Origin: a bacterium
GTDB lineage: Bacteria > SAR324 > NAC60-12
DNA: 64,000 nucleotides
Reading direction: 5' to 3'
NCBI GenBank assembly: GCA_965233585.1
Contig: CBDDTI010000745.1
Coordinates: forward strand, 352,001-416,000
Below are positions 18,845 to 61,015 of the stretch, one piece after another. Made by a program: the position numbers and the translations under genes. The notes beneath the pieces were generated by a model that saw only the letters and a list, made by a program, of their open reading frames with translations, was not told the origin of the DNA and made no database searches. How positions within the stretch are numbered: position 1 is the stretch's first letter; each line of letters opens with the position of its first letter.

Positions 18845-19603
18845 TCAAGACAAAGTCCATTCAACGATGGCATGAGCCAGATGCTTCATGTCTTGTGTTT
18901 CAGGAACGACTGCGGGTTGCATGGAATAATGCCGTAATTTTTGTGCAGTGACCTGACCAATGCAAGCGATTTGCACATCAGCCATCTTGGCATGAATCGT
19001 GGCACACTCAAAAAAATGTTGAACAGTGGATGGGCTGGTGAAGACAATCCAGTCAAGCGAATCCAAAAGATTCTGATGCTTGCTGAAAGAGTCTTTGGCA
19101 CAAGAGACAATCTGATAAACAGGGGTTGCGATGACGGTAGCACCTTGTTGGGTGAGTTGTTCCTGCAAAAGTGTTCTCGGTGCTTCAGCTTGCAAAAGCC
19201 AGTAAGTTTGTTGAGCAAAATCTTGACGTTGCAGTGCATGGAGTAGCCCCTCGCTTTGGAAAAATTCAGGAATTAAATCTGTCTCAATCCCAAATTTTTG
19301 CAGGCTTTGGGCAGTGGCACGTCCGACACAAGCGATTTGAGATTGTTTGAAATAGTTTGCACTGAACCCCAACAAGCGGAGTCTTTCCAAAGTGAACTCT
19401 ACCCCATTCTTACTACTAAAAATCACCCAATCTGCCACAAAATTTTGCTGAAGCAATTCATCAAAAGCAAGCCATGAAGACGGAGGTTTCACCTGAATCA
19501 TGGGCAGTTGGACAACCTCTGCCCCTTGAGACTCTAAAATTTTGACCAATTCAGAGCCTTCTAATCCTGTCAATGCAATCCGCTTGTTCTTTAAATGTTG
19601 CAT
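18845..19603 (-). CDS. hemD: Uroporphyrinogen-III synthase
   Basis: WVIFSSKNGV, IACVGRATA, FTSPSTV, ACIGQVTA. Confidence 0.92.
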   Translation of the reverse strand: MQHLKNKRIALTGLEGSELVKILESQGAEVVQLPMIQVKPPSSWLAFDELLQQNFVADWVIFSSKNGVEFTLERLRLLGFSANYFKQSQIACVGRATAQSLQKFGIETDLIPEFFQSEGLLHALQRQDFAQQTYWLLQAEAPRTLLQEQLTQQGATVIATPVYQIVSCAKDSFSKHQNLLDSLDWIVFTSPSTVQHFFECATIHAKMADVQIACIGQVTAQKLRHYSMQPAVVPETQDMKHLAHAIVEWTLS

Positions 19604-19834
19604 CTGAACCTCCAGTCAGTCAAAAAATGTGAGTCAAAATTTGTGATGACTTCAAAATTTGCATAGTATTCCTCATCTTTAACACTTTTCATTGATTTGT
19701 TGTGCATACTAAAAAAATAATAGACACAGTTTAAAATTTTCTATAGAACTTTTTTACTTATCCTAAGCATATACACGGCACGAAGTGTAAGTTGCGTTGT
19801 GACTGCTTATTTCCAATCTCAAAAATTTTTCATC

Positions 19835-21088
19835 CTATAATTTTCTTGAAAACTTTCTAAAGGATTTGACCAGCTCATAAAACAAAACAATATCAAGAAT
19901 GTTCTTGAATGAGTTTAAAGGTTCAAAGAAATTGATGTATTTCAAATGATCAAGATCAGAAAATATTTTTTGAATTGAAGAGGTTGGATTAAGAAAATGT
20001 AAAAAGTATTTGACAAATTCTTCTAAGCAAAAGTAATCAAAATAAATCAAAGCGAATGTCATGGATAAATTCAATACAATAATACAAATCAAGGGAATTA
20101 CAGGTTGTGTTCCATAATAACTTACTACCTTTTCAAAAGACAAAAGCCACATATTCAAATTTTTCCAACTTAAACTTTGCCTGTATTTCTCCATCTCTTG
20201 TACATGAAAGTCTAATGCTTTGATTTGATCTTGTTGTTTTAAAGCAAGATTTTTTAAAATCAAAAAAGTTTCTCTATTGGCTGCATGCTCTATATTTGTA
20301 TCAGTATAATCTATGGCTTGAATTTGAGAAGATTTTAAATTTAATTTAAATTGGTCACACTTTCTAGTATTAACTTGCCCAAAACTTAAAAATTTTTCAA
20401 AAACTGTATACTCAAAATTAACATCTTGAATAAAAACTACCTGCCTAAAGGAAACATTATCCATGAAATGTGCATATCTAAAATCTACATTTTTTGTAAA
20501 AATAGCCTCTCTAAAATATGTTTTTTCACTAAAAATGGCGTCAATAAAATCTGCATTTTTATAAAAAATAGTCTCTCTAAAATTTGCTTCTTTTTTAAAC
20601 TGAGAACCATTAAATTTCACAAATTTTTGAAAATTTGATCCTGTAAAGATTGCTTCTTTTTTAAAAATACTCCTAGAAAAATTTGAGTCTTCCTTGAATA
20701 TAGAGTTTTTAAAGTCAGCATCAAATTCAAAAGTTTCACCTTCAAAAGATGCTTCTATAAGAAAAATACAACGACTAAATTTGGCAAGAGTTGGATCATT
20801 ACCATCAAATTTTGCAATACTCCTTGTTTTTTGTAGGGTTTTTTCCATACGCTTTTTAATTTGTGAGGGCTTTTCAATTAAGTCATATTCCTCACTACCT
20901 AACTTGACAAATCTCTGCTTAAAATCTAGTTTTTTACTAGAATGCTCATAAATCATATCTAAATCACCTTGATCTAATTTAGAAATTTCTGCTTCTATAT
21001 GCCTTTCTTCAATTTTAAGCTCTAGCCATTCTCCATTCTTTTTAACCTTGATTAATCCTTGTTTTAGTTTTAAAGTATCTACTTTCAT
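19835..21088 (-). CDS. Pentapeptide-repeat protein with C-terminal membrane segments
   Basis: Tandem A.F…F.... repeats (ADFKNSIF, ANFRETIF, ADFIDAIF); hydrophobic C-terminus; GAGGAG RBS before ATG 21088. Confidence 0.8.
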   Translation of the reverse strand: MKVDTLKLKQGLIKVKKNGEWLELKIEERHIEAEISKLDQGDLDMIYEHSSKKLDFKQRFVKLGSEEYDLIEKPSQIKKRMEKTLQKTRSIAKFDGNDPTLAKFSRCIFLIEASFEGETFEFDADFKNSIFKEDSNFSRSIFKKEAIFTGSNFQKFVKFNGSQFKKEANFRETIFYKNADFIDAIFSEKTYFREAIFTKNVDFRYAHFMDNVSFRQVVFIQDVNFEYTVFEKFLSFGQVNTRKCDQFKLNLKSSQIQAIDYTDTNIEHAANRETFLILKNLALKQQDQIKALDFHVQEMEKYRQSLSWKNLNMWLLSFEKVVSYYGTQPVIPLICIIVLNLSMTFALIYFDYFCLEEFVKYFLHFLNPTSSIQKIFSDLDHLKYINFFEPLNSFKNILDIVLFYELVKSFRKFSRKL

Positions 21089-39544: not shown

Positions 39545-42500
39545 ATCTACAACAGTAGAAATTAAATAAGTCTATTAGACGATACGGCTTAGATCTGAAT
39601 CCTTCATATCTACAACAGTAGAAATTAAATAAGTCTATTAGACTCTCATGGTTATAGAAACTCCTATATATCTACAACAGTAGAAATTAAATAAGTCTAT
39701 TAGACCAGCAATGGATTAATAAGATTGGTGCAATCTACAACAGTAGAAATTAAATAAGTCTATTAGACGCGGGAAGATTTACGGACATAGTTACCTAATC
39801 TACAACAGTAGAAATTAAATAAGTCTATTAGACAGTTTCGCAAGTCCTGTGATCTTGACATCTACAACAGTAGAAATTAAATAAGTCTATTAGACAATAA
39901 CGGAGGTTAGTGTTGGGACTTAGATCTACAACAGTAGAAATTAAATAAGTCTATTAGACGTTGTTGAATGGAAAAAACGACAGAAATCTACAACAGTAGA
40001 AATTAAATAAGTCTATTAGACGCTCCTGAACGAGCGAACTGCTTCATATCTACAACAGTAGAAATTAAATAAGTCTATTAGACGAGCCACAACAGAAGCT
40101 CCCACAGGATATCTACAACAGTAGAAATTAAATAAGTCTATTAGACTAAAAAAAGCTGTCAGACTTGCGTCTCTATCTACAACAGTAGAAATTAAATAAG
40201 TCTATTAGACTATGCGGTGGTGATTGATGCAGACTACATCTACAACAGTAGAAATTAAATAAGTCTATTAGACGCATCTTGGAACAAACAGAATTTTACA
40301 TCTACAACAGTAGAAATTAAATAAGTCTATTAGACGAGCCACAACAGAAGCTCCCACAGGATATCTACAACAGTAGAAATTAAATAAGTCTATTAGACTA
40401 TGCGGTGGTAATTGATGCAGACTACATCTACAACAGTAGAAATTAAATAAGTCTATTAGACGCATCTTGGAACAAACAGAATTTTACATCTACAACAGTA
40501 GAAATTAAATAAGTCTATTAGACATGCGAAAAGGACTAGAGTGATGAGTATCTACAACAGTAGAAATTAAATAAGTCTATTAGACGATCCACAACAGAAG
40601 CTCCCACAGGATATCTACAACAGTAGAAATTAAATAAGTCTATTAGACATGCGAAAAGGACTAGAGTGATGAGTATCTACAACAGTAGAAATTAAATAAG
40701 TCTATTAGACGCACAAATCTCCAAGGCACCAGTGCATATCTACAACAGTAGAAATTAAATAAGTCTATTAGACACTTCTGACCTTATAATATCCTATGTA
40801 TCTACAACAGTAGAAATTAAATAAGTCTATTAGACTAAAGCAAGAAATATGACGACGCAAGTATCTACAACAGTAGAAATTAAATAAGTCTATTAGACTA
40901 AAGCAAGAAATATGACGACGCAAGTATCTACAACAGTAGAAATTAAATAAGTCTATTAGACTATAATGACAATCTGCACACATGTCATCATCTACAACAG
41001 TAGAAATTAAATAAGTCTATTAGACGAACTCAAAGCAGTCAATGCCTCATTATCTACAACAGTAGAAATTAAATAAGTCTATTAGACAGCATTTATTTCC
41101 ATTCTGAACAGAAATCTACAACAGTAGAAATTAAATAAGTCTATTAGACGAACTCAAAGCAGTCAATGCCTCATTATCTACAACAGTAGAAATTAAATAA
41201 GTCTATTAGACGGCATTTATTTCCATTCTGAACAGAAATCTACAACAGTAGAAATTAAATAAGTCTATTAGACCAAAAGGCGCTAAAGGTGAACTAATAA
41301 TCTACAACAGTAGAAATTAAATAAGTCTATTAGACCGTTGAAGAAGTAATCATCAGAGACAATATCTACAACAGTAGAAATTAAATAAGTCTATTAGACA
41401 ATTGGAGCGAAAAAAAGACGTTGACGAAATCTACAACAGTAGAAATTAAATAAGTCTATTAGACAAGTCTCTGTGCGACTCATCAATGGTGATCTACAAC
41501 AGTAGAAATTAAATAAGTCTATTAGACGGTGCTGCAATCTGCCAAAACGGGTCGTATCTACAACAGTAGAAATTAAATAAGTCTATTAGACTTCCAAGAT
41601 TGAAGAGTCTTTTTGTCTTATCTACAACAGTAGAAATTAAATAAGTCTATTAGACTCAACACGATCTAGGTTGTCTTTGGTATCTACAACAGTAGAAATT
41701 AAATAAGTCTATTAGACTTTTTCTGGAATTGATGCATACATCTATCTACAACAGTAGAAATTAAATAAGTCTATTAGACTTGAGACGTTAGTCGAGATCA
41801 GTTCGGTATCTACAACAGTAGAAATTAAATAAGTCTATTAGACGTTTTTCTGGAATTGACACGTACACCTATCTACAACAGTAGAAATTAAATAAGTCTA
41901 TTAGACCAAACTATTGAAGTTGAATACAATATATCTACAACAGTAGAAATTAAATAAATCTATTAGACTTTTTCTGGAATTGATGCATACATCTATCTAC
42001 AACAGTAGAAATTAAATAAGTCTATTAGACTTGAGACGTTAGTCGAGATCAGTTCGGTATCTACAACAGTAGAAATTAAATAAGTCTATTAGACGTTTTT
42101 CTGGAATTGACACGTACACCTATCTACAACAGTAGAAATTAAATAAGTCTATTAGACCAAACTATTGAAGTTGAATACAATATATCTACAACAGTAGAAA
42201 TTAAATAAGTCTATTAGACGCAAGATGAATCTTTTGAGATATTTCTATCTACAACAGTAGAAATTAAATAAGTCTATTAGACTTTTGGACAATCATGTTT
42301 ATAGAATTAATCTACAACAGTAGAAATTAAATAAGTCTATTAGACAGACTTTTTCAAATCTAATCCCTCGTATCTACAACAGTAGAAATTAAATAAGTCT
42401 ATTAGACAACAACGAAATTAACTTGAACAACCCTATCTACAACAGTAGAAATTAAATAAGTCTATTAGACATCATTTTCCGAAACTTGGAGAAACCAATC

Positions 42501-45500
42501 TACAACAGTAGAAATTAAATAAGTCTATTAGACAATTCAGGAGGGTATCATTCCCATTCTAATCTACAACAGTAGAAATTAAATAAGTCTATTAGACATG
42601 GAGGGGGGAACATTCTCAACACATCTACAACAGTAGAAATTAAATAAGTCTATTAGACAAAAAGAATTACGTCCCATTCTGGAGATCTACAACAGTAGAA
42701 ATTAAATAAGTCTATTAGACATGATGATAATTATCATCATCATCTAATCTACAACAGTAGAAATTAAATAAGTCTATTAGACATTACTGGATTGGATATA
42801 TGTAAATCCATCTACAACAGTAGAAATTAAATAAGTCTATTAGACTTCACAACTATAAATCTTCACAACTAATCTACAACAGTAGAAATTAAATAAGTCT
42901 ATTAGACCCTCTCAATAGACTGGTGCTGGGTTCATCTACAACAGTAGAAATTAAATAAGTCTATTAGACCTAGCTTCTCAAAAGCAAATGACTCAGAATC
43001 TACAACAGTAGAAATTAAATAAGTCTATTAGACAAAAAGAATTACGTCCCATTCTGGAGATCTACAACAGTAGAAATTAAATAAGTCTATTAGACATGAT
43101 GATAATTATCATCATCATCTAATCTACAACAGTAGAAATTAAATAAGTCTATTAGACATTACTGGATTGGATATATGTAAATCCATCTACAACAGTAGAA
43201 ATTAAATAAGTCTATTAGACTTCACAACTATAAATCTTCACAACTAATCTACAACAGTAGAAATTAAATAAGTCTATTAGACCCTCTCAATAGACTGGTG
43301 CTGGGTTCATCTACAACAGTAGAAATTAAATAAGTCTATTAGACCTAGCTTCTCAAAAGCAAATGACTCAGAATCTACAACAGTAGAAATTAAATAAGTC
43401 TATTAGACAAGATTTGGATTTGAGGAAGATGAAACCATCTACAACAGTAGAAATTAAATAAGTCTATTAGACACTTTGATGTCTGCTGCTCCGTATTATC
43501 TACAACAGTAGAAATTAAATAAGTCTATTAAACAAAAATAACTTACAAAATTGACAATTAATCTACAACAGTAGAAATTAAATAAGTCTATTAGACATGC
43601 AAGATTTAATAGCTTTTTCAGAAATCTACAACAGTAGAAATTAAATAAGTCTATTAGACCAATTCAATAAGAGTATTCTCTCACACCATCTACAACAGTA
43701 GAAATTAAATAAGCCTATTAGACAGGTTTGTATCATTCTATGATTCCGGATCTACAACAGTAGAAATTAAATAAGTCTATTAGACATGGAAAAGCAACAG
43801 AAATGTTACTTATCTACAACAGTAGAAATTAAATAAGGGCATTGTTAAGTAATAAGTGATAGCTGATTATTCCGTTGGCATTGTTAAGTAATAAGTGATA
43901 GTTGATTATTCCGTTTTGCCATGAACAAAAGAACAGAATATTGTAATGCTTTAAGAGACTTGCTGTAACATTTGGTTTTCCTTCTCATTCTTGCCAAGAA
44001 ATGTCTCAAGAGAGAATTATACCCTTCTACCGTGTATGTTTCTGCCTTGGAACATGTATGAATTTCTTTGGGAATGACTTGTTTGTAAGCCTTCCAGTGA
44101 TCAGTCATCACCTGAAGAGGTTTTGTTTCCTTGACCTTGTCCCATAAATGCCTACAGGCTTTTGAGTCTCTGTTTCCAAGCACACAATTGATAAATTGCT
44201 TCCCACATCTATCAACAGCAATCCAGAGCCAGCAGTAGTTTTTTTTGACTGGATGTAGGTGTGCATTTCATCAATTTCCATAATTTCAATGTCTGTGTCC
44301 TTTCTTAATGCCTTGAGCTGTTCGCCAAAACTACAGACCCAATTATAAACTGAAACATGAGAACAATTCAGCAAACGACCGATTGACCTGAAACCAAGAC
44401 CCTCCAAATACAACTCTAATGCTCTTCTTTTGATCTGTGGTGAGATTTGACCACGATAGGACTTGGTATATTGATAGTTGCAGGCATTGCAACGCCTCCT
44501 CGGTTTACCATATAAAAAACCATTCTTAACCATCTTCTCACTTTCACATCTAGGACACGACTTCATTGCTACACCATGACTATCAATTCAATTAAATGAA
44601 CTTAATATCGCATATCACTTATAGTTTAACAATACCGAAATTAAATAAGTCTATTAGACAAAGATTCAACAACATTTCTGAGCCTAATCTACAACAGTAG
44701 AAATTAAATAAGTCTATTAGACATCTGTGTTTTACATGGTTTTCTATCTTTATCTACAACAGTAGAAATTAAATAAGTCTATTAGACCTATTTGAGCAAA
44801 GGTCAATCTTGAATATCTACAACAGTAGAAATTAAATAAGTCTATTAGACTTAGACAAAAACCTTTTAGACGACCTATCTACAACAGTAGAAATTAAATA
44901 AGTCTATTAGACTAAGAGAAAAAAAATATCCGTGCCAAATCTACAACAGTAGAAATTAAATAAGTCTATTAGACGTGATGTTTGAGACACACCATCTTTT
45001 ATCTACAACAGTAGAAATTAAATAAGTCTATTAGACAGAATCATCAGACTCAATAGATTCAAATCTACAACAGTAGAAATTAAATAAGTCTATTAGACTA
45101 TAATGTTTAATCATTATTCTCTTAATCTACAACAGTAGAAATTAAATAAGTCTATTAGACTTTATTCTAAAAAATAAAATGAATAACATCTACAACAGTA
45201 GAAATTAAATAAGTCTATTAGACCCCCTAAAGTGATTTTTTTTGCATATTATCTACAACAGTAGAAATTAAATAAGTCTATTAGACATAAATACCCTAAA
45301 TTAGTTTGATTATATCTACAACAGTAGAAATTAAATAAGTCTATTAGACAACAATCAAAGAATCTTCAGAATCAAATCTACAACAGTAGAAATTAAATAA
45401 GTCTATTAGACAGAATTTTCTTTGACAAATCCTAGTTTATCTACAACAGTAGAAATTAAATAAGTCTATTAGACAAAGCACTGTCAGCAGAAAACCACAC

Positions 45501-48500
45501 ATCTACAACAGTAGAAATTAAATAAGTCTATTAGACCAAAAAAAATATGATGAACTCAATAACATCTACAACAGTAGAAATTAAATAAGTCTATTAGACG
45601 TCATTCAATCGCAACAAGAGTTGATTATCTACAACAGTAGAAATTAAATAAGTCTATTAGACGTTTTGGATTTAAGCCTAGTAAATACAATCTACAACAG
45701 TAGAAATTAAATAAGTCTATTAGACACAAACTTCATTTTTAGAAGAGAAACCATCTACAACAGTAGAAATTAAATAAGTCTATTAGACGATGCAAGAGCT
45801 AATAGCTTATGCAATATCTACAACAGTAGAAATTAAATAAGTCTATTAGACCAAGAACTCAAGAAATTGAATCTTTTATCTACAACAGTAGAAATTAAAT
45901 AAGTCTATTAGACAAGCGACAAAACAACTGGCATTTTGTATCTACAACAGTAGAAATTAAATAAGTCTATTAGACCGCATTCGTAATAGGGAGGATCCAG
46001 AATCTACAACAGTAGAAATTAAATAAGTCTATTAGACAAGAGGGGAACGAACTGTTTCCCCTTATCTACAACAGTAGAAATTAAATAAGTCTATTAGACG
46101 GGGAGCAGTCAGCTACATTGCTTCAATCTACAACAGTAGAAATTAAATAAGTCTATTAGACTCTGATTGGTTTCGGAAGATCAAAAAAATATCTACAACA
46201 GTAGAAATTAAATAAGTCTATTAGACGAGAAAAAAGTTTTGGAAATTGAACTCATCTACAACAGTAGAAATTAAATAAGTCTATTAGACCGCCAGTGCGG
46301 CAGAAAAATCAGCCACATCTACAACAGTAGAAATTAAATAAGTCTATTAGACTTTTAGATGCTGGTCAAGGTGTCCAAATCTACAACAGTAGAAATTAAA
46401 TAAGTCTATTAGACTTTTAGATGCTGGTCAAGGTGTCCAAATCTACAACAGTAGAAATTAAATAAGTCTATTAGACTCAAAAAATGGTCTATCTCTTTTG
46501 TCATCTACAACAGTAGAAATTAAATAAGTCTATTAGACGGTCTAAAAATGGTTTATCTCTTCTTTATCTACAACAGTAGAAATTAAATAAGTCTATTAGA
46601 CCTTCAAATAGGTCTATCTTCATATTGGATCTACAACAGTAGAAATTAAATAAGTCTATTAGACATTCAAATAATTATATGCGTTCCTTAATCTACAACA
46701 GTAGAAATTAAATAAGTCTATTAGACATTCAGATTTTGACAAATCTAATTATATCTACAACAGTAGAAATTAAATAAGTCTATTAGACGTGTGCTAGACT
46801 AGAGGCTTCTTTGGAATCTACAACAGTAGAAATTAAATAAGTCTATTAGACTCTTCAAAAGTAGAAGACCATCATGCCATCTACAACAGTAGAAATTAAA
46901 TAAGTCTATTAGACTGATGTAGCAAAAGTAACACCACCATATCTACAACAGTAGAAATTAAATAAGTCTATTAGACGTGTGCTAGACTAGAGGCTTCTTT
47001 GGAATCTACAACAGTAGAAATTAAATAAGTCTATTAGACCTTTCTCTGATAATGGAATGCCAACTATCTACAACAGTAGAAATTAAATAAGTCTATTAGA
47101 CTCTAATCTTTTAGCGCTTCTTTGGAATCTACAACAGTAGAAATTAAATAAGTCTATTAGACTTGAAAAACTGGGTTTTGATGCAAGTTATCTACAACAG
47201 TAGAAATTAAATAAGTCTATTAGACTTTAGTAACTAATCAATTCTTTTCCATATCTACAACAGTAGAAATTAAATAAGTCTATTAGACTTTGCGGAGTGG
47301 CTCCAGTGGAGCTGTATCTACAACAGTAGAAATTAAATAAGTCTATTAGACCGCAAGTTTTTGGATTTGGAACTGATATCTACAACAGTAGAAATTAAAT
47401 AAGTCTATTAGACAACAAAATAAACACAGAATTGAACAATGATCTACAACAGTAGAAATTAAATAAGTCTATTAGACTGTAAAGCATAAGACTCCTGCAC
47501 TCCATCTACAACAGTAGAAATTAAATAAGTCTATTAGACCGAGATGACCTAGCAGCAAGAATCGGATCTACAACAGTAGAAATTAAATAAGTCTATTAGA
47601 CTCAAAAAAAAAATGACATTTCCACTTTATCTACAACAGTAGAAATTAAATAAGTCTATTAGACTGTGCTAGACTAGATGATTCTTTAGAATCTACAACA
47701 GTAGAAATTAAATAAGTCTATTAGACGAGTATAGGAATCTTTTTGGACTCTTATCTACAACAGTAGAAATTAAATAAGTCTATTAGACGTATTTATAAAT
47801 ATTGATTCCTCTACATCTACAACAGTAGAAATTAAATAAGTCTATTAGACATCAGAATCCAAAGACTCATCAGAATCATCTACAACAGTAGAAATTAAAT
47901 AAGTCTATTAGACTTCCGAGTACTTTTGACTTGCAAAAGATCTACAACAGTAGAAATTAAATAAGTCTATTAGACGATGAAAATTAACCTATAGAATAAA
48001 ATCTACAACAGTAGAAATTAAATAAGTCTATTAGACAAGGAGAGCTAGGAGTAGTTAATTCGTATCTACAACAGTAGAAATTAAATAAGTCTATTAGACT
48101 TAAAAGGATCAATAGAAACAGAATAATCTACAACAGTAGAAATTAAATAAGTCTATTAGACGTTAAGTCCTAATGAAGATCATATTACATCTACAACAGT
48201 AGAAATTAAATAAGTCTATTAGACTATTGACCCAACAGACATGAGAACAAATCTACAACAGTAGAAATTAAATAAGTCTATTAGACCCTAAACATGTTTA
48301 ACTTCTGTGAGTATCTACAACAGTAGAAATTAAATAAGTCTATTAGACCAGAGCATCATTGAGCGTTTTATTTATCTACAACAGTAGAAATTAAATAAGT
48401 CTATTAGACAACCAGATTGGTGAGCCAAATAAGCAAATCTACAACAGTAGAAATTAAATAAGTCTATTAGACCCGACAATCAACATTTTAAGAACATACA

Positions 48501-51500
48501 TCTACAACAGTAGAAATTAAATAAGTCTATTAGACATTTTTATCTTCCCTTTTTTCTCTGGTATCTACAACAGTAGAAATTAAATAAGTCTATTAGACGA
48601 TCGCATTGCATCTATCAGGAGAAAATCTACAACAGTAGAAATTAAATAAGTCTATTAGACCTCTTCAGGTTTGACTTTTCCTTCTTTATCTACAACAGTA
48701 GAAATTAAATAAGTCTATTAGACATTGAATCGGAGCGGTTTTGATTCAAATCTACAACAGTAGAAATTAAATAAGTCTATTAGACATGTAGATTGTTTAC
48801 ATTGCGGGCATTATCTACAACAGTAGAAATTAAATAAGTCTATTAGACGATTCTTTAATTGGTTCTGATGAGTCTATCTACAACAGTAGAAATTAAATAA
48901 GTCTATTAGACCCTCATCAGGAGCGTCAGGACGATCAGATCTACAACAGTAGAAATTAAATAAGTCTATTAGACGCGCCATTGACCAGTGGCTTCAGTTG
49001 ATCTACAACAGTAGAAATTAAATAAGTCTATTAGACACACATCGCATCTATTCCCTTATCCCTATCTACAACAGTAGAAATTAAATAAGTCTATTAGACG
49101 TGATGACGTTCCCCCGAGAAAACAGACATCTACAACAGTAGAAATTAAATAAGTCTATTAGACTGGTGAAAGAGCAGGCAGACATACTCATCTACAACAG
49201 TAGAAATTAAATAAGTCTATTAGACTTTGTTACCTTTATCTCCTGTCTGTCCCTATCTACAACAGTAGAAATTAAATAAGTCTATTAGACAAATTGAAAG
49301 TCTTCAGCGTTTCACTATCTACAACAGTAGAAATTAAATAAGTCTATTAGACACTACTGCCAAACGATTCAAATCTGAATATCTACAACAGTAGAAATTA
49401 AATAAGTCTATTAGACATTACAAGTGGAATCATAGCAGTGAAAAATCTACAACAGTAGAAATTAAATAAGTCTATTAGACCCTGATGCAATGGAGGGATC
49501 AAGTCCATCTACAACAGTAGAAATTAAATAAGTCTATTAGACTCGTAAAGTTAAAAATTCTTCTGGAAATCTACAACAGTAGAAATTAAATAAGTCTATT
49601 AGACATTGACAGAAGGAATGATGTTAAGAATCTACAACAGTAGAAATTAAATAAGTCTATTAGACAATGAATGGGCTTAAAGCAAAAACTTTGATCTACA
49701 ACAGTAGAAATTAAATAAGTCTATTAGACCAAACTTCGCTGAATATCTAAGTCTAATCTACAACAGTAGAAATTAAATAAGTCTATTAGACAGAGAGGTG
49801 TAGAGGTTACACTCAATATCTACAACAGTAGAAATTAAATAAGTCTATTAGACTTTTTTATCTTGTAAATTGTAAACAGAATCTACAACAGTAGAAATTA
49901 AATAAGTCTATTAGACGTCCGTCAAATGGTCTCGCTGTTCAACATCTACAACAGTAGAAATTAAATAAGTCTATTAGACGTCCGTCAAATGGTCTCGCTG
50001 TTCAACATCTACAACAGTAGAAATTAAATAAGTCTATTAGACATTGTTGATTCCTTTGTTTATTCTGTATCTACAACAGTAGAAATTAAATAAGTCTATT
50101 AGACAAAATGAATACAGAAACAAACCATGATGATCTACAACAGTAGAAATTAAATAAGTCTATTAGACATTTATTATTTATAATGAGACCATTGATCTAC
50201 AACAGTAGAAATTAAATAAGTCTATTAGACAAAATTAAAGAAAACTCATTGGCTATAATCTACAACAGTAGAAATTAAATAAGTCTATTAGACAAAATCA
50301 ACAACATTGTTGGTCACCGCATCTACAACAGTAGAAATTAAATAAGTCTATTAGACCTCACTGGCATTGACTTTTCTAGTGCATCTACAACAGTAGAAAT
50401 TAAATAAGTCTATTAGACGAGATTTATTTTTTTGAATCTTATTTTATCTACAACAGTAGAAATTAAATAAGTCTATTAGACAGATGAGAATGACAACTTA
50501 TTTGACTATCTACAACAGTAGAAATTAAATAAGTCTATTAGACCTCACAAAAAAACCAGCATGCTGGCAATCTACAACAGTAGAAATTAAATAAGTCTAT
50601 TAGACTAAACCTAAACAATCCCAAGACTCTTATCTACAACAGTAGAAATTAAATAAGTCTATTAGACAGGATAAAAATGACAAAGAAAATAAAAATCTAC
50701 AACAGTAGAAATTAAATAAGTCTATTAGACGGAGTTACGTTGACTGCAGACAATGTATCTACAACAGTAGAAATTAAATAAGTCTATTAGACTCCCCGTT
50801 GGCTACATCGTTACCAGTATCTACAACAGTAGAAATTAAATAAGTCTATTAGACGGTTTTAATCTTGTCCAGCCTCCTGAATCTACAACAGTAGAAATTA
50901 AATAAGTCTATTAGACATTTTTCAGATATGTTTACAACGAAACATCTACAACAGTAGAAATTAAATAAGTCTATTAGACAGTCTTGTTGTCAAAGTCAAA
51001 GACAAATCTACAACAGTAGAAATTAAATAAGTCTATTAGACGAGATTGCGGGTCAAGCCCGCAATCTCATCTACAACAGTAGAAATTAAATAAGTCTATT
51101 AGACGCTAAAGCAGTCACCTCTGTCGCTTTATCTACAACAGTAGAAATTAAATAAGTCTATTAGACCAAGAGATCACCATTGCATGGTGCAAATCTACAA
51201 CAGTAGAAATTAAATAAGTCTATTAGACTGATTCAATGTTTTTTAACCTTTATTATCTACAACAGTAGAAATTAAATAAGTCTATTAGACTCTACTCCAG
51301 TCAAAAAAAGACCGCATCTACAACAGTAGAAATTAAATAAGTCTATTAGACCAAGGAGAACAACATGTTTCATTTTTTATCTACAACAGTAGAAATTAAA
51401 TAAGTCTATTAGACTTTTAGATTTTTCATTTTCTCCTTTAAATCTACAACAGTAGAAATTAAATAAGTCTATTAGACTTGGGCTTCACAGGTTGCCCATT

Positions 51501-52723
51501 GATGATCTACAACAGTAGAAATTAAATAAGTCTATTAGACCTTCCCTGTTGAGCTGAAACAATAAATCTACAACAGTAGAAATTAAATAAGTCTATTAGA
51601 CAAGCAAGCTTTAGCAAATTCCCCTCATCTACAACAGTAGAAATTAAATAAGTCTATTAGACACGGAAAGCATTGCCACGATTTCAGGATCTACAACAGT
51701 AGAAATTAAATAAGTCTATTAGACGAATTAATCCATGTTTATCAAGTGTATCTACAACAGTAGAAATTAAATAAGTCTATTAGACTCTGGGTTGACAACT
51801 ACGTATTTGTGTATCTACAACAGTAGAAATTAAATAAGTCTATTAGACTCATGGCTTCGAACTCGCCTATCGCAACATCTACAACAGTAGAAATTAAATA
51901 AGTCTATTAGACTCAAAATCTGCAGGTTTGGACTTCAATCTACAACAGTAGAAATTAAATAAGTCTATTAGACGTTTTTCAATGGATCATTTTGAATGAA
52001 TCTACAACAGTAGAAATTAAATAAGTCTATTAGACTGTATTGGATTTTTTCACCCGCGATGATCTACAACAGTAGAAATTAAATAAGTCTATTAGACAGA
52101 CAAAAAAAAATCGTGTTCAAAACATCTACAACAGTAGAAATTAAATAAGTCTATTAGACAATCAAACAAAACATAATGCGTTAACAATCTACAACAGTAG
52201 AAATTAAATAAGTCTATTAGACGGTATCACAATCGTGATTTGTTTTACATCTACAACAGTAGAAATTAAATAAGTCTATTAGACACAGAAATGAAATAAA
52301 TCTAAACATGCTATCTACAACAGTAGAAATTAAATAAGTCTATTAGACCCTCTCCATACCTTATCACGGACAAAGATCTACAACAGTAGAAATTAAATAA
52401 GTCTATTAGACGCCTTATGTCTCTGCATGGATAGAGACGATCTACAACAGTAGAAATTAAATAAGTCTATTAGACCATATTCACTAGTTTTTGAATCCAT
52501 AATCTACAACAGTAGAAATTAAATAAGTCTATTAGACATGAGTTTATCAATATTTATTGATGAATCTACAACAGTAGAAATTAAATAAGTCTATTAGACA
52601 CTAAAATGTCATAAATATCGTCAATATCTACAACAGTAGAAATTAAATAAGTCTATTAGACCAAAGACTCTTCAGTCCCGTCAGTCTATCTACAACAGTA
52701 GAAATTAAATAAGTCTATTAGAC
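39545..52723 (-). CRISPR. Type V-A CRISPR array, about 197 spacers (68 left of the IS, about 129 right; manual count)
   Basis: 36-bp repeat GTCTAATAGACTTATTTAATTTCTACTGTTGTAGAT (minus strand) ending in the canonical Cas12a handle AATTTCTACTGTTGTAGAT; spacers 25-29 nt. Confidence 0.99.
43838..44636 (-). mobile_element. IS1-family species A copy 3 (43877-44636) plus a 39-bp IS-end remnant (43838-43876), inside a CRISPR repeat
   Basis: Reverse complement of copy 2; GGCATTGTTAAGTAATAAGTGATAG occurs twice in tandem. Confidence 0.96.
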
Positions 52724-52996: not shown

Positions 52997-53272
52997 TCAA
53001 GAGATCATTATCAAATCAGACTCATCATTTTTGGCATAACCAAAACGTGTGATTTTGCATTGTTGGCTTAAATTAAAAATGATGATGCTGTCTGACTGGC
53101 TAAACGATTTGCTAAAGTCTGTCTCTATCTGCGTTTCAATCAAGTCCAAAATTCGTTTGCTATTTTCAATCTCAAAGACTGAATATTGCAGACGGTAGCC
53201 AAATTTTTTAAGAAACTCTGAGAACCTTGTCCGCAAAGGTGTCTCTGAAATATCATACGTCACAATCAACAT
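52997..53272 (-). CDS. cas2: CRISPR-associated Cas2
   Basis: IVTYDIS, FGYRLQYSVFE. Confidence 0.97.
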   Translation of the reverse strand: MLIVTYDISETPLRTRFSEFLKKFGYRLQYSVFEIENSKRILDLIETQIETDFSKSFSQSDSIIIFNLSQQCKITRFGYAKNDESDLIMIS

Positions 53273-53284
53273 GTCATACCTCCT

Positions 53285-54283
53285 CTATTGAATTTGCTTG
53301 GTTTCATTCTTTGCCTGACGCCTCATGCTAAAAACAGGGTAGTCCGCAATGGGCTTGTCCCTCATAAAAGAACGATAATAACTTTGCATATACAAAAACA
53401 TCTCTATCTTATACTCCAGCAAAACCTCCATATAAAGTTGAGTGTAAGGCTTGGCGTCTTTGCCAAAAAGTTTATATTGATTGTTGATGACCTTAAAATC
53501 TTCTTCTTTCACTTGTCCCAGCTGATACGCCTTGCGTGTCCTGTAATCAATCAAAGGACGGAACGGCTCTATCAAATCACAAACCAACGCCTTGCGTTGA
53601 AAAAACTCTTTGTGATACACGCCACGATACAAATCAAACCCGTAAATCTGCAAAAGAGCCTCAATCAAGTTAAACAACAAGGTATAGCCAATATCCAGCA
53701 AACAATTAATAGAATCTGCCTTCACTCTGGGTCTTCTGGCTTGCCAAGGATACACAGAAAAGATTTGCTTAAAATACACCCGCGAGGCAATCCCTTCCAG
53801 CCCCAAAATCTGCTGCAAATCTAAACCCTCCGTTTGAAGTTGCCCCCGATACTCCTTTAAACTGCTGATGGCTCTTTGGCAAGCAAGCGACTTTTCACGA
53901 ATCCGACCCAACGCCTCAATTTGATTGGACAACTTATTGCCTACCAGATGCCTTGCCACCTCAAGCCCGTCATAGTCATATTGTTTTTTTCTCAAACGGA
54001 CATTGCCCTCTATTTTCGTATTCCAAGACCCGTAAGGACGCAGACCATAATTCAAAAAAATGATGCTAAACCCAAACCGCTTAGCACGTTCCAACAAGCC
54101 AGAACTCACCGTACAATGACCCGAGATAAACAAAGCAAACAAACGATGACAAGTAGATTGATGCTTCAGCTGACCCTCCTTGTCATAAATCATAATATTG
54201 TCATTTTTGTAGCTAAATTTTTCTCCTAGGTTAGAAAACACAAAGAGAATCTGCTTCTTTTCAAAATCTGGTTTACTCAACAT
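53285..54283 (-). CDS. cas1: Type V-A Cas1
   Basis: Start MLSKPDFEKK overlapping the cas4 end; GLEGIASRVYF, NCLLDIGY, GVYH, LVCDLIEPFR. Confidence 0.96.
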   Translation of the reverse strand: MLSKPDFEKKQILFVFSNLGEKFSYKNDNIMIYDKEGQLKHQSTCHRLFALFISGHCTVSSGLLERAKRFGFSIIFLNYGLRPYGSWNTKIEGNVRLRKKQYDYDGLEVARHLVGNKLSNQIEALGRIREKSLACQRAISSLKEYRGQLQTEGLDLQQILGLEGIASRVYFKQIFSVYPWQARRPRVKADSINCLLDIGYTLLFNLIEALLQIYGFDLYRGVYHKEFFQRKALVCDLIEPFRPLIDYRTRKAYQLGQVKEEDFKVINNQYKLFGKDAKPYTQLYMEVLLEYKIEMFLYMQSYYRSFMRDKPIADYPVFSMRRQAKNETKQIQ

Positions 54284-54839
54284 CAGCCAAAGAATAATCG
54301 CAAAGGTTATGATAAATACAGCCACGACATTTAGCCGCAACAGGCGTAAAGTCTGCACTCATGTCAAAATCCCTCAAATCAGCAAGGCATTGTTCAAAGG
54401 CTTGAAAATCTTCAGGGCTATCTTCAGGCTTCTTCACGGGGTAACTTTTGTTGTCAACCATGCTGTACAACTTCAACTTCTCCACCTCATACCCCATCTC
54501 ACGCAAACAAAAATACTGGGCATACAACTGAAAAATATAACCCTGATACACCAGCCGAATCTGACGTTTACGTTCCACCAACTCCCGCTTCTTCTCATCA
54601 TAAATGTCAATCTTTCCGCACAATCCGTAACGTTCACAATACACATCTATCCCCTGCAACACATGACGAGAGGTGCTGTAACCCTTTTCATCAATACTCT
54701 GATGCGCCGCACGACCCTTCCTTTGAGCCGTGCCATGATACAACCACTCTGACGTCTGTGCATACAGCTGATGAAAGTAAATAGAACGAGGACAAAACAG
54801 AAAATCATTTAAATACGAAATTAAAATGTAACTCTCCAT
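54273..54839 (-). CDS. cas4: Type V-A Cas4
   Basis: LNDFLFCPRSIY, GKIDIY…VERK, QLYAQ, C..C…..C Fe-S ligands. Confidence 0.96.
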   Translation of the reverse strand: MESYILISYLNDFLFCPRSIYFHQLYAQTSEWLYHGTAQRKGRAAHQSIDEKGYSTSRHVLQGIDVYCERYGLCGKIDIYDEKKRELVERKRQIRLVYQGYIFQLYAQYFCLREMGYEVEKLKLYSMVDNKSYPVKKPEDSPEDFQAFEQCLADLRDFDMSADFTPVAAKCRGCIYHNLCDYSLADVE

Positions 54840-54981: not shown

Positions 54982-57900
54982 TTAGTCCTCTTCACTGTCT
55001 TTGTTGATAATCTCATACTTTGCCTTTTGCTTTTCTACAATTTCCTCCTTTTGAGAAAAATTTTGCCAATCAGTTTTTGTAATAGATAAATTCAGTTTAT
55101 CCTCCTCTTTCTCCTTAACAAAATCTCTTATTCTTTCCAATATCATGACTCCTTTTCTAGCAATGTTATAAGCTCCATTAGCATCGCTATCTACTGGCAA
55201 AGGAGCTTCACTTGGTTTATAGTTTTTTAACTGCCTACTATCAAAAAAAGGTTCAACAGGAGAAAGGATAAAATCATCTTTATTATTTTGGTCTCCTATA
55301 AAAACTCTCATATCTAAAAGCCGCTTCAAGTAAGCAATCAGTTTTGCTAAAAATTTAGATTCTTCAAATTGTTCTGTTAAATCTTGGCTACAAATAAAAT
55401 CCTTATAATCCTTGTTTTCTAAACCATCTTTTAACTCCTTATTGAATAAATCTACTAGTTTTTGATTGACATCAACTTTGACATTTTTTCTCCATTTGCC
55501 ATTAACTGCTTCTTTATATTCATCTTGTTTTCTTTGTTCTTCCGTTAGTTTAACCTCTTTATATTGCGACCTTTCTACATGACTACAAATAGTCCAAATC
55601 TTATTGATTTTTTCTTCATCTAAATCTTTCTTATCCTCATAAGACCCTGTCATTCCCTTTAGATTTTTTAAATTATAGGTAAATTCAAAAAACTTACCAT
55701 TGTATTTAATAGAATTAAATTTGCTAAAAAACTCTTGAGCTTTTTTAGCCTCGCTATACTTAGGATAAAGTCCTCTCATATATCCCGTGACAGGATCAGT
55801 TTTAGATGTATAACTAGCATCAGTGTAAAACAAAATTCCAGATTGAATTCCTATGTCACTAAAAGTTTTAAATTTATTAGTAAGTTGATAACCTTTTAGG
55901 TAATGTCCTGTTTTCTCAAAATCAGTTTCTTTTTTGTTCACTAAATAGTTAAGTTTATGGATCAATGCCATTTCAAACTTCTGATAAACCTGTTTTTCAA
56001 ATTTAAATCTTCCCCCTTTAAATCCAGCATTTAGGTTTTCTAAAACTACAATCGCATTATGTTTTAAGATTAACTGAGCAAGCTGATGCACGACTTGAGA
56101 AAGATAACCGTTTTTTAAGTCTTTGATGTTTTCTACTTTTTCCCAATTCTCTCTTGCTTTTCCTCTTGCTTTTTGTTTCTCATCTAATTTTTGATGATAA
56201 TCTATTTTTTGAGTTTCTTGACTTCCAGCAGGTTGAAAACCACTGTCAATTTCATTAAAACTTCCTTGTTCTAAAATTTTACCGTCTTTATCAATGACAC
56301 TATAATAAAGTAAATTCTTTTCACCCCTGTCTATCCCGATAATATTAATATCTTGGTAATGTTCTTTAAGAAAATCATTAATATCACTACTAATGTAGTC
56401 TCTCCCCTCGCTTTTAAAATTAATGGTAATCGAACAATGGAATAAAATTTTATCTTCACTATATCTTTTATCCTTTATTATTGGATAGCTGAATTTACTT
56501 TTTAACTCTTGGTAATGATGCCCTTTTTCTCTTTTTTCTTTTGAATAATTTAAAGAAGCCTTACGATAAAAAAGCTCTGCCTGTCCGTTGAGCTTAATAA
56601 CAACATCCTTTAAATTTTGCTCTTCAAATAATGCTTTCCAATAAATTGTATGAAGGTTAGGTCTGCCTTGACTTCTTTTTGAAAAATCTTTACTGTAAAT
56701 TTCAAAGAGATAAAATTTTTGATTTTCTACCATTCTATCCACATAAGATTGTGAGATATTAGAAAATTCTATTTTGTAGCCTTGCTTATTAATATCATCT
56801 GTAAACTCTTTTAGATTGTTGTACTCTTCAGTTTTTTCAAATTTTAAATCTGCCCATTTCCAGTAGCTTAAAGCACATTTTTTATAGTAATCAATAAGTT
56901 TTATCAAATCTTCTTTTACTATATCAGTACCTTTGTATGTTCCTTTTTCTCTTATTTTTTGTATTTCAGGACAATGTTTTTTCCTTATGACATCTAATCC
57001 TTTGGTAAATCTTTCCGCTTTACCATTGACATAAACCAAGTTATGAATATCTAATGCTGGATTAGCAACCTGTTTATAATCCATTTTTTTATACATGGAA
57101 GAATGATCACTTAGCAAGCTCAAATCAATTTCTAACCCCTGTATCTCTTCTTGAAGTATTGATATTTCAGACTTTAATTCTTTGTAAGTTTTTGTTCCTT
57201 CTTTCTTTTCAGAAAGATTTTTTTCTTTCTTTTTAATTTTTTTCTTTTTATCTTCTAAATCTTTCTCTAATTTAGTAAAATCAAAAAGATTTTTATTGTC
57301 TCTGCTCATTATCCCAAGATAATACTTTCCATCTTTGAGCAAAATGACACAAGTATTATCGGTTTCTTTGTTTTTATCCCAACCATTTGCCAACGTAGGA
57401 TTTTCAAAATTCAACTTGTACTTATCTTCATTAAATTCTTTTTTTGTTAAAAAATTTCTCACTTTATTATAGAATTTTGTAATATTATTCCTATCGGAAT
57501 TAGTAAATCTAATCACCGTATCATTCCAAATTTGTTCTTGATTTGCCCCCTTATCCGAATGAGTAAAATCTTTTTCCTTAACATTGAAACTTCTTAAAAA
57601 TCGGTATAAATCTTGTGAAGCGTCAAGATATTTTTTAATACTATTCTTTTCTTCTTGTTCAAAAGGATTTGTTAAACACTTCGCATTTTCTAGAATCTTT
57701 GAGTTTTCTAAATTTCTTAAATGCTCTTTTTGTTGCTTTAACAAATAAGTAAATTTATTCGCCAAATAAGTAAACAAAAAATCTTCTTCTGGCAAATCTT
57801 TTAAAAAAGCTCTTTTCTTTTTTATACCCTCTTGTTGATCTACTTGTCCAAAATTATCTTTTATTGGCTTAATAAATTGAGTATAAAAATTTGCTGATTC

Positions 57901-59863: not shown

Positions 59864-61015
59864 CTAAATGAAAGAACTTGCAGTCTGGCGTCCCCACCTG
59901 TCAGCTTCAAAATAGCATTCTAAATCTTGGGTATGATGAAAATCCTGACAAGCAGTTTTCCATTGTTGCATGACACGTTGCAGGGTGGTTGCGATGTCAG
60001 TCAAACCGATGTGTTCGTCAAGAAACGCCTTAACAACACACTCATTTGCACCATTCAACACTGCAGGTGCAAGACCTCCCAAAGATGCGGCATCAAGTGC
60101 AATCTGAAAGCAGGGATAACGTTTGTGACAAATCGGCTCAAAATGCAAGGTGTTTAAACCTTGAGCAGACAATCGGGGCAGTTTGAGAGGAAGCCTTTGA
60201 GGAAAGGATAAGCAGTAAGCAATGGGGAGCCGCATGTCTGGTGCAGACATTTGAGCCATCATAGATCCGTCCACGTATTCTACTAAAGAATGCACATGGC
60301 TTTGCCTATGAATCACAGCTTGAAAAGAAGCAAGGGGAATGTCAAACAAATGAGAGGCTTCCATGAGTTCCAAACCCTTGTTCATCATGGTTGCAGAATC
60401 TACCGTAATCTTGTCTCCCATCTCCCAGTTAGGGTGTTGCAAGACTTCATGCCGTTTGACCTTTGGCAGTTGTTCCAGCGGAACATCACGCAAAGCCCCC
60501 CCAGATGCTGTTAACGTGATTTGATGAACATCTTCTTTCTGCTGTCCTTGCAATGTTTGAAAAATGCCATTGTGTTCGCTGTCCACTGGCAAAATCAGGC
60601 TTCCTGAACGTCTAGCTTCACTCATCATCAAATCCCCTGCCAGCACTAAGGATTCTTTGTTTGCCAAAGCAACAGTCTTGCCTGCACAAATCGCCGCGTA
60701 TGTTGACCTTGCCCCTGCAACACCTACAATGGCAGCCACCACAAAATCCACTTGCGAAAGACTCGCCACCTGTTGTAACCCTTCGCTCCCATGCAATAAC
60801 TTCAGATGCTCTGGCAACGCCCCCAAATCTATCTGTTGCTCTGACGCCACACAGGCAAAAGCAGGCTGGAACTCTTGAATTTGAGAATACAAAAGGTCTG
60901 TGTTGGAATAGCAAGTTAAGGCTTCCACTTGGAAGTGTTCAGGGAATTGCCTGACAATGTCCAACGTACTTTGACCAATAGACCCTGTTGAACCCAAAAT
61001 GGCAATCTTTTTCAC
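59864..61015 (-). CDS. dxr: 1-deoxy-D-xylulose-5-phosphate reductoisomerase
   Basis: LGSTGSIG, LANKESL, PVDSEH, LTASGG, HPNW.MG.KITVDSATMMNKGLE. Confidence 0.98.
   Translation of the reverse strand: MKKIAILGSTGSIGQSTLDIVRQFPEHFQVEALTCYSNTDLLYSQIQEFQPAFACVASEQQIDLGALPEHLKLLHGSEGLQQVASLSQVDFVVAAIVGVAGARSTYAAICAGKTVALANKESLVLAGDLMMSEARRSGSLILPVDSEHNGIFQTLQGQQKEDVHQITLTASGGALRDVPLEQLPKVKRHEVLQHPNWEMGDKITVDSATMMNKGLELMEASHLFDIPLASFQAVIHRQSHVHSLVEYVDGSMMAQMSAPDMRLPIAYCLSFPQRLPLKLPRLSAQGLNTLHFEPICHKRYPCFQIALDAASLGGLAPAVLNGANECVVKAFLDEHIGLTDIATTLQRVMQQWKTACQDFHHTQDLECYFEADRWGRQTASSFI

Follow-up and report, generated by a model that had tools for sequence, protein, structure and literature searches.

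Work on the structure and engineering of Cas12a has treated a lysine in the loop of the protospacer adjacent motif (PAM)-interacting (PI) domain, K607 of AsCas12a or K595 of LbCas12a, as essential. Among Cas9 nucleases, closely related orthologs (Neisseria type II-C) swap PI domains, which read different PAMs. Among 21 Cas12a orthologs the PI domain and the REC lobe are reported to vary most (PMC13330018). Lb2Cas12a from Lachnospiraceae bacterium MA2020 carries Q571 where FnCas12a has its first loop lysine, K667, in a loop that is otherwise of canonical type; it is reported to be active with a TTTV PAM and to gain both activity and a wider PAM when the lysine is restored (PMC7940699). Here we describe a Cas12a in which both loop lysines are missing. 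Its gene lies in a 64,000-nucleotide (nt) stretch of DNA from a SAR324 bacterium (assembly GCA_965233585.1, contig CBDDTI010000745.1, positions 352,001 to 416,000), hereafter called the window. We consider it probable that this enzyme is an intact type V-A effector whose PAM is contacted by the lysine-less loop, part of an alternative PI cassette, and that its PAM is T- or pyrimidine-rich.

The window protein shares with the canonical enzymes (FnCas12a, LbCas12a, AsCas12a and MbCas12a) the set and order of domains, the accompanying cas4-cas1-cas2 genes, the 3′ handle of the CRISPR RNA (crRNA) repeat (AATTTCTACTGTTGTAGAT), the lysine motif GWDKNKE of the WED domain and the invariant RuvC residues, and a model of its WED and PI domains superposes on FnCas12a and on the ancestral Cas12a ReChb. 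It differs from them in residues 849-944 of the PI domain (27-35% identical to the PI domains of its nearest backbones), in having no loop lysines, in an inserted hairpin, and in its greater length (1544 amino acids), which comes from extra K/E-rich inserts. Lb2Cas12a is likewise without the first loop lysine, its Q571 corresponding to L855 of the window protein. However, Lb2Cas12a presumably keeps the second loop lysine, whereas the window protein lacks both and has a variant fold, here called class 2.

A phmmer search of the PDB with the window protein (P0001) matched ReChb (E = 1.5e-196), FnCas12a (1.9e-182), LbCas12a (9e-142) and AsCas12a (about 1e-120). The Pfam domains found were RuvC_1 (4.1e-86), NUC (8.6e-16), REC1 and the C-terminal two thirds of Cpf1_PI-like, and residues D1096, E1193 and D1478, which we take to be the RuvC catalytic triad, did not vary in a 30-sequence class alignment. 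Cas12a2, in which zinc-ribbon and insertion domains replace the Nuc domain, has low identity to Cas12a and is represented in the PDB. Assignment of the window protein to Cas12a2 was ruled out by the presence of the Nuc domain and by the finding that all 26 PDB matches at E ≤0.001 were of Cas12a type, that is, Cas12a/Cpf1 chains or ReChb. Judged by its gene content, the locus is a complete type V-A system on the minus strand, in the order cas12a, cas4, cas1, cas2, leader and array.

A second form of the PAM-contacting loop

HMMER paired the window peptide ykqvanpaldihnlvyvngkaerftkgld with ykllpgankmlpkvffsn-------knid of ReChb. Where known Cas12a proteins have LLPGxNKMLPKVFF, the window protein has QVANPALDIHNLVY together with a 7-residue insertion, the first loop lysine being replaced by leucine (L855) and the second by asparagine (N859). 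This second lysine, within the motif LPK, we take to be K607 of AsCas12a, K595 of LbCas12a and K671 of FnCas12a. LbCas12a has YKLLPGPNKMLPKVF at the loop, a motif that also occurs in many homologs and in the ReChb and FnCas12a chains. When the PI domain alone was aligned to FnCas12a the register shifted slightly, and there was still no lysine opposite either loop lysine. The conserved minor-groove lysine of the PI loop is absent from the window protein, which has Asn859 there. At the L855 codon the plus strand reads TAA, giving TTA (Leu) on the minus strand, and any lysine codon is two base changes away. A first-pass annotation of the window had placed a missing PAM-reading lysine and a short insertion in the Cas12a PI segment at 56930-57100; the alignments bear this out, and the loop peptide falls within that interval. 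The WED motif ANGWDKNKETDN matches the FnCas12a motif exactly, and its K750 is unvarying in the class alignment. We take K750 to be the major-groove PAM-reading lysine (K548 of AsCas12a, K613 of FnCas12a).

When residues 690-1100 were used to search for homologs, even the best match was only 50% identical in this region, so that the protein has no close relative there. From the 120 proteins listed, 99 were cut and aligned, and 51 of these 99 have the class-2 loop, the other 48 having the canonical YKLLPGxNKMLPKVFF or an As-like loop; these class frequencies are biased by the class-2 WED-PI query with which the set was drawn. The class-2 consensus is YKQIADAGKDIQNLI..G...RFTKNLD, in which QIADAGKDIQNLI stands in for the canonical LLPGxNKMLPKVFF and is followed by an inserted beta-hairpin. 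Expressed as a pattern, the loop reads Y-K-Q-[IV]-A-x-x-x-[KR]-D-I-x-N plus an insertion ending in ..RFTK.LD, which the window protein fits except at L855. Because 51 of the 99 homologs are without it, the PI-loop lysine is a feature of the canonical PI form and not of the whole Cas12a family. In a 30-member alignment that includes the window protein, Y847, K848, Q849 and I857 are unvarying, and conservation is 90% or more at D856, N859 and R869.

A larger set of 69 class-2 sequences has K (44), R (13), a gap (4), Q (3), N (2) or L, A and M (1 each) at position 855, and N (50), T (8), a gap (4), S (3), C (2) or G and K (1 each) at position 859. Thus 57 of the 69 are basic at position 855, and leucine occurs there in the window protein only. 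On these alignments the missing lysine and the insertion are traits of the class, and the peculiarity of the window protein itself is the leucine at the class's basic position. Class-2 loops were present in 12 of 80 Cas12a loci from GTDB species-representative genomes, the hosts being Victivallaceae, Bacteroidales (two metagenome-assembled genomes, MAGs), Prevotellaceae, Sulfurimonas, Lachnospiraceae, Acetobacterium, an uncultured Clostridia MAG, Bdellovibrionales (two MAGs), a gammaproteobacterial MAG and a Moraxella MAG. No characterised Cas12a ortholog could be placed in class 2 from ten class-2 protein clusters, which have no source labels. The passages of the literature that were searched give no account of a class-2 loop, nor of Cas12a proteins exchanging PI cassettes; supplementary alignments could show the class.

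AlphaFold2 modeling of residues 700-1070 without DNA, from a 44-sequence alignment, gave a mean predicted local distance difference test score (pLDDT) of 85.7. In the loop (pLDDT 92-97) the model predicts a strand, ..MYKKMDYKQ, followed by the short helix ALDIHNL and then by a beta-hairpin (VYVN / AERF) formed by the inserted residues. In the model the canonical loop-lysine-helix-loop layout is kept, with a helix that lacks the lysine. Foldseek matched the WED-PI model to FnCas12a and ReChb (E about 3e-23, query template modeling score (TMq) about 0.6). The PI domain alone had a best PDB match at E = 8e-11, with no close solved relative.

Cassette exchange between Cas12a backbones

We compared 181 aligned proteins (110 canonical, 69 class 2 and 2 unlabelled), taking out the PI columns for the calculation of backbone identity. 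Proteins of different PI class were found on closely similar backbones: L096 and P0047 (backbone 97.3%, PI 42%), L051 and P0035 (89.9%, 37%), P0064 and 11 class-2 proteins (84-88%, 35-40%), L081 and L153 (85%, 37%), P0058 and P0076 (85%, 45%), L041 and L043 (84%, 20%), and P0022 and P0063 (83%, 42%). Same-class pairs at 55-95% backbone identity have a mean PI identity of 64%. Both PI classes occur in 8 of the 19 multi-member backbone clusters (at least 75% identity), and parsimony on a FastTree of the backbones required at least 33 class changes, whereas 200 label shuffles averaged 55 and never needed fewer than 43.

The exchanged block corresponds to residues 849-944 by the L096/P0047 and P0022/P0063 comparisons and to 846-952 by the Moraxella pair L081/L153, and it starts at the junction between YK and Q in the loop peptide. 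Within the block L096 and P0047 are identical at 19 of 88 aligned positions, with flanks of 97.7% and 96.8%. The Moraxella MAG protein L081 (loop ANAGADIAT) and its canonical-loop counterpart (G119/L153) agree at 1013 of the 1261 positions aligned; identity is 85-95% in most windows of 50 columns and drops to 7/35, 10/32, 13/44 and 20/48 over residues ~610-730. Cas12a was present in 12 of 42 Moraxella genomes, with a class-2 PI domain in 2 and a canonical one in 10. The class-2 loop itself differs within Moraxella, ANAGADIAT in L081/G101 and ANARRDLAC in G116:C6 (L156), the PI domains being 59% identical.

These comparisons show, at the level of protein sequence, that the class-2 cassette has been moved repeatedly between Cas12a backbones by recombination. 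By the same measure the window protein is itself a mosaic. Its 7 nearest backbones (50-55%), all long Cas12a proteins, have loops that are not class 2 (canonical or As-like) and PI domains only 27-35% identical, whereas its nearest PI domains (46-58%) sit on backbones 37-40% identical. Across the swap, the identities of Cas4, Cas1 and Cas2 are 91, 95 and 96% in Sulfurimonas and 86, 84 and 97% in Moraxella, and the repeats are 1 nt apart. With the adaptation genes conserved across these PI swaps, the machinery that selects the PAM during acquisition has stayed the same, and this speaks for a PAM that has not changed either.

PAM flanks and their interpretation

Protospacers of other Cas12a systems were sought with whole arrays in genomes of the same genus or family, and the 5′ flank was read in the crRNA sense. 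For the class-2 Sulfurimonas locus L041 (loop ADPSKDVQN, 94 spacers; 194 genus and 353 family genomes), four independent spacers matched with at most 3 mismatches. Their flanks were TTTG (a 28/28 match), CTCC (2 mismatches), TTTT (3 mismatches) and, for one spacer with sites in five genomes at 1-2 mismatches, TTTC at six sites and TTTT at one. TTTN was therefore found for 3 of 4 spacers, compared with a background of 5.5% in the fetched stretches, which links a class-2 member to a TTTN PAM on small numbers. Two further family-level candidates for Sulfurimonas were dropped, one an array remnant and the other a non-match. The canonical control, Moraxella G119 (85 spacers), gave TTTA/TTTA/TTCA/TTTA for a single spacer with sites in four genomes and, for three others, TTTA, TTGG and (once the register is moved by 3 nt) TTTG, which makes TTTV for 3 of 4; its sole self-target has the non-PAM flank TGCA. 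Moraxella L081, a class-2 enzyme without the loop lysine (17 spacers), gave ATGG, CTTC, TTGC/TTGT/TTGC for one spacer in three genomes, and TTTA, and it has two perfect self-targets with the non-PAM flanks TGTA and GATG. The gut class-2 members had no usable protospacers in the phage collection, their own genomes, their genera (4 and 8 genomes) or IMG/VR.

The assembly that holds the window (12.0 Mb, 747 contigs) has one cas12a by tblastn and three arrays of the 36-nt repeat GTCTAATAGACTTATTTAATTTCTACTGTTGTAGAT, which is typical of Cas12a. The window array has 195 spacers, of which 177 are unique. A second array (C745:87812-90698; 47 repeats, 46 spacers) has an 80-nt leader identical to that of the window, and a third, on contig C109 (~19270-20437; 14 spacers), has a leader ~90% similar to the host's, with no cas12a on C109; a stricter search counted 15 full-length repeats in it and a core search 16. 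C109, 36 kb long, is a conjugative element with genes for VirB4/6/8/9/10/11, VirD4, a relaxase, a primase-ArdC fusion, a topoisomerase and ParA, and as a plasmid it may make use of the effector of its host.

An exhaustive scan of the assembly with the spacers, allowing up to 6 mismatches, identified C109 as the sole truly enriched contig (10 matches compared with 2.98 expected, Poisson p ~0.001). Other contigs that seemed enriched were rejected as artefacts of one GAT-repeat spacer. The four window-array spacers that match C109 at 5 mismatches or fewer are A1_109 (flank CATC, 2 mismatches), A1_154 (ATTC, 3), A1_94 (TGAT, 3) and A1_106 (TTTC, 5). TTV was found at 2 of these 4 sites, the C109 background being 6.9% for TTV and 2.7% for TTTV, and the plasmid flanks lean toward T at -2/-3 and C at -1. 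Three window spacers have perfect self-targets: 51478-51504 at C747:994729, 49666-49693 at C745:258859 and 49605-49629 at C746:814425, lying respectively in a tricorn-type protease gene, in the intergenic spacer after his genes and in a thiamin pyrophosphokinase gene, which are housekeeping and not prophage sequences. The flanks are TAAG, AAGG and AGAA, with purines at -3 to -1 in all three. As these perfect sites persist, they must not be cleaved. Two more spacers match the chromosome less well, one mismatched at position 1 (flank TTAT), the other at three positions (flank TTGG). Taken together, the plasmid and self-target flanks fit a pyrimidine-requiring PAM that is still under selection.

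The first-pass annotation had proposed mapping spacers to viral and plasmid databases and building a logo of the 5′ flanks. Flanks could be read for C109 and the self-targets; the viral and plasmid databases yielded no protospacers from which to build a logo. The whole window array gave only repeat-like or chance matches, plus an IS1 match, in phage and plasmid collections; no real protospacer was found in 101 related genomes, and exact scans of IMG/VR and metagenomes found none. Metagenomic relatives of the C109 VirB4 gave 45 spacer-pattern matches, none of which was confirmed.

Several points weigh against a T-rich PAM for the window enzyme. The window arrays yielded no unbiased protospacer set, and the flanks read for them come from their own assembly. 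About 3 chance matches are expected on C109, and five further spacers match there, with the flanks CAAA (A3_4, 5 mismatches) and, at 6 mismatches each, AGAA (A1_110), TGTC (A1_123, two sites), TTAC (A2_16) and GAGT (A2_36). Even among the four better sites only one has TTTV, TGAT and CATC not being TTV at all, and these sites are few, mismatched and possibly selected escapers. The PAM at the level of the class comes from four spacers of a single organism, Sulfurimonas L041, which has retained the class lysine that is absent from the window protein; Moraxella L081, which is without it, has TTTV at 1 of 4 compared with 3 of 4 in the canonical control. In addition, the residues proposed to read the PAM come from a DNA-free model, and the FastTree was built on a quick alignment, although the pairwise backbone comparisons are independent of the tree.

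The missing lysines alone are no evidence of a new PAM. The first-pass annotation had suggested that the PAM may be altered or relaxed, and the structural premise of that suggestion holds; alteration is made unlikely by the TTTN flanks of a class-2 member and by the unchanged adaptation genes, whereas relaxation stays live through L855 and the looser T-rich flanks of Moraxella L081. A relaxed PAM, in which loss of both loop lysines would leave pyrimidines preferred through the WED lysine over a wider set (NTTV, YTV, NTN), is in our judgement possible and rather unlikely. It would suit the singular Leu855, given that 57 of the 69 class-2 sequences have K or R, as well as C109 flanks that are not uniformly TTTV, the contrast between Moraxella L081 and its control, and tolerated self-targets whose flanks are purines at -3 to -1 throughout, as if any flank containing a pyrimidine were dangerous. 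However, Lb2Cas12a is without the same first lysine and has a narrow TTTV PAM in the available part of its description (PMC7940699). Moreover, the Moraxella samples are 4 versus 4, and the C109 sites coexist with the array and may carry changes that escape PAM recognition. A truly altered PAM, with the lysine-less loop reading a different motif that is not T-rich, might be expected from the purine-rich sequence 5′ of the three perfect genomic matches, from the one usable pair of overlapping spacers, which includes a mismatch and implies the flanks CCAA and AATT, and from the lack of a TTTV majority among the window's own spacers. We regard it as very improbable: the perfect matches fall within housekeeping genes of the host chromosome or next to them, where a functional PAM would be lethal; the class-2 member shows TTTN and adaptation genes are unchanged across PI swaps; and the WED lysine motif is identical to that of FnCas12a, the plasmid matches including TTTC and ATTC.

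We give as little credence, or slightly less, to the idea that interference has decayed, loss of the lysines having crippled binding of double-stranded DNA, with the system kept for adaptation or another role and self-targets tolerated. Three perfect and one near-perfect self-targeting spacers, and the coexistence in the assembly of a plasmid with imperfect protospacers, could be explained in this way. Yet the open reading frame (ORF) is intact with invariant RuvC residues, 195 and 46 spacers stand under identical leaders, a basic residue at position 855 is also missing from 8 of the 65 class members (out of 69) that have a residue aligned to it, and the canonical control has a non-PAM self-target as well. 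In addition, about 5 of the 177 unique window spacers match the host genome, none at a T-rich flank, which points to ongoing selection against PAM-flanked self-targets.

We therefore favor a T- or pyrimidine-rich 5′ PAM as the most likely state of the window enzyme, and hold this to be probable; a strongly altered PAM is unlikely. K750, the conserved lysine of the WED domain, would read the PAM jointly with the class-2 helix (D856, I857, H858 and N859), perhaps helped by the basic residues K866, R869 and K872 of the inserted hairpin. At most, Leu855, which takes the place of the class lysine, would make the enzyme less stringent or weaken its affinity.

AcrVA5 acetylates a key conserved lysine of Cas12a and so blocks PAM binding, as described in the available parts of two reports (PMC9114340; PMC9811890). 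Because AcrVA5 targets a PAM-binding lysine, escape from anti-CRISPRs is an attractive hypothesis for the existence of two PI forms. The acetylated lysine is presumably the one replaced by Asn in class 2. We tentatively propose that a family-wide PI dimorphism is kept by recombination, and that class 2 reads the same T-rich PAM and spreads by escaping anti-CRISPRs that target the lysine. Under this proposal class 2 would escape acetylation by AcrVA5 and possibly the PAM-mimicking AcrVA1, and the variants with no loop lysine (L855/N859 in the window protein, GADIAT in Moraxella) would be a fully acetylation-proof end point.

If a large share of natural Cas12a reads a T-rich PAM without the PI-loop lysine, there is a second and structurally uncharacterised way of PAM reading. 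Natural pairs that differ in the cassette alone would be ready-made tests of PAM reading and of sensitivity to anti-CRISPRs, and they could yield AcrVA5-resistant editors. Cassette exchange would also place Cas12a, like Cas9, among the effectors with a mobile PAM module. The likeness to Neisseria Cas9 is that near-identical effectors differ sharply only in the PI module, implying recombination of the module, whereas the Cas12a forms described here point to the same T-rich PAM.

Organization of the locus and its arrays

Table 1. Coordinates of the type V-A locus and of the PAM-related features of its Cas12a, in window positions.
Feature	Coordinates	Strand	Basis or remark
cas12a (P0001), 1544 aa	54982..59616	-	ORF; long-lineage backbone with class-2 PI domain
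cas4	54273..54839	-	Pfam Cas_Cas4, E 8.3e-7
cas1	53285..54358	-	Pfam Cas_Cas1, E 2.8e-49
cas2	52997..53272	-	Pfam CRISPR_Cas2, E 7.1e-13
CRISPR array, 197 repeats and 195 spacers of 25-29 nt	39545..52723	-	leader on cas2 side
IS1-family element inside array	43786..44686	not assigned	array gap and IS1 transposase-annotated plasmid matches
PI-domain cassette, residues 849-944	56785..57072	-	near-identical pairs mapped to P0001 numbering
PAM-loop peptide YKKMDYKQVANPALDIHNLVYVNGKAERFTKG, residues 842-873	56998..57093	-	translation, alignment and AlphaFold2
L855 codon, first loop lysine position (Fn K667)	57052..57054	-	sequence and HMMER alignment
N859 codon, second loop lysine position	57040..57042	-	sequence and HMMER alignment
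K750 codon, WED motif ANGWDKNKETDN	57367..57369	-	sequence; invariant in class alignment
K/E-rich insert, 57 residues (780-836)	57109..57279	-	predicted two-helix hairpin

The K/E-rich insert at residues 780-836 lies between the WED and PI domains, and its helices are predicted at model residues 81-104 and 110-136 with pLDDT 95-98. It is common to long homologs of both PI classes, which makes it a trait of the long lineage that lies outside the cassette. Most homologs of 1400-1550 amino acids that have this insert, of either PI class, share a Gly-Thr/Ser-x-x-Tyr turn. REC1 of the window protein has further K/E-rich inserts.

The 3′ end of the array repeat forms the AAUUUCUACUGUUGUAGAU handle, with the spacer downstream. 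Eighteen spacers of the window array occur twice, suggesting block duplications, and one spacer of the second C745 array is the same as a window spacer save for a 1-nt difference in length. The IS1-family element in the array (901 bp) has an ORF with an HTH_23 domain and a 98% identical copy at C747:2124-2919. Lone copies of the 3′ core of the repeat, away from the arrays, were found at C269:6066, C729:99554, C746:351622 and C109:17418.

The spacer at 51042-51068 is a perfect palindrome, GAGATTGCGGGCTTGACCCGCAATCTC, with 293 BLAST matches in all. Of these, 94 are sites of a dispersed genomic repeat, at 2-3 mismatches; the listed copies are exact from base 4 to base 27, which puts the mismatches in the first three bases, the PAM-proximal seed. 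Several pairs of window spacers, among them A1_156/158, A1_170/172, A1_180/184 and A1_183/186, have the same target start with 1-4 bases of difference, as though one mobile element had been sampled repeatedly, in different variants, at a single PAM-anchored site. Directly upstream of cas12a lies dxr, encoding DXP reductoisomerase (59864-61015), and the CRISPR locus as a whole stands among ordinary chromosomal genes.

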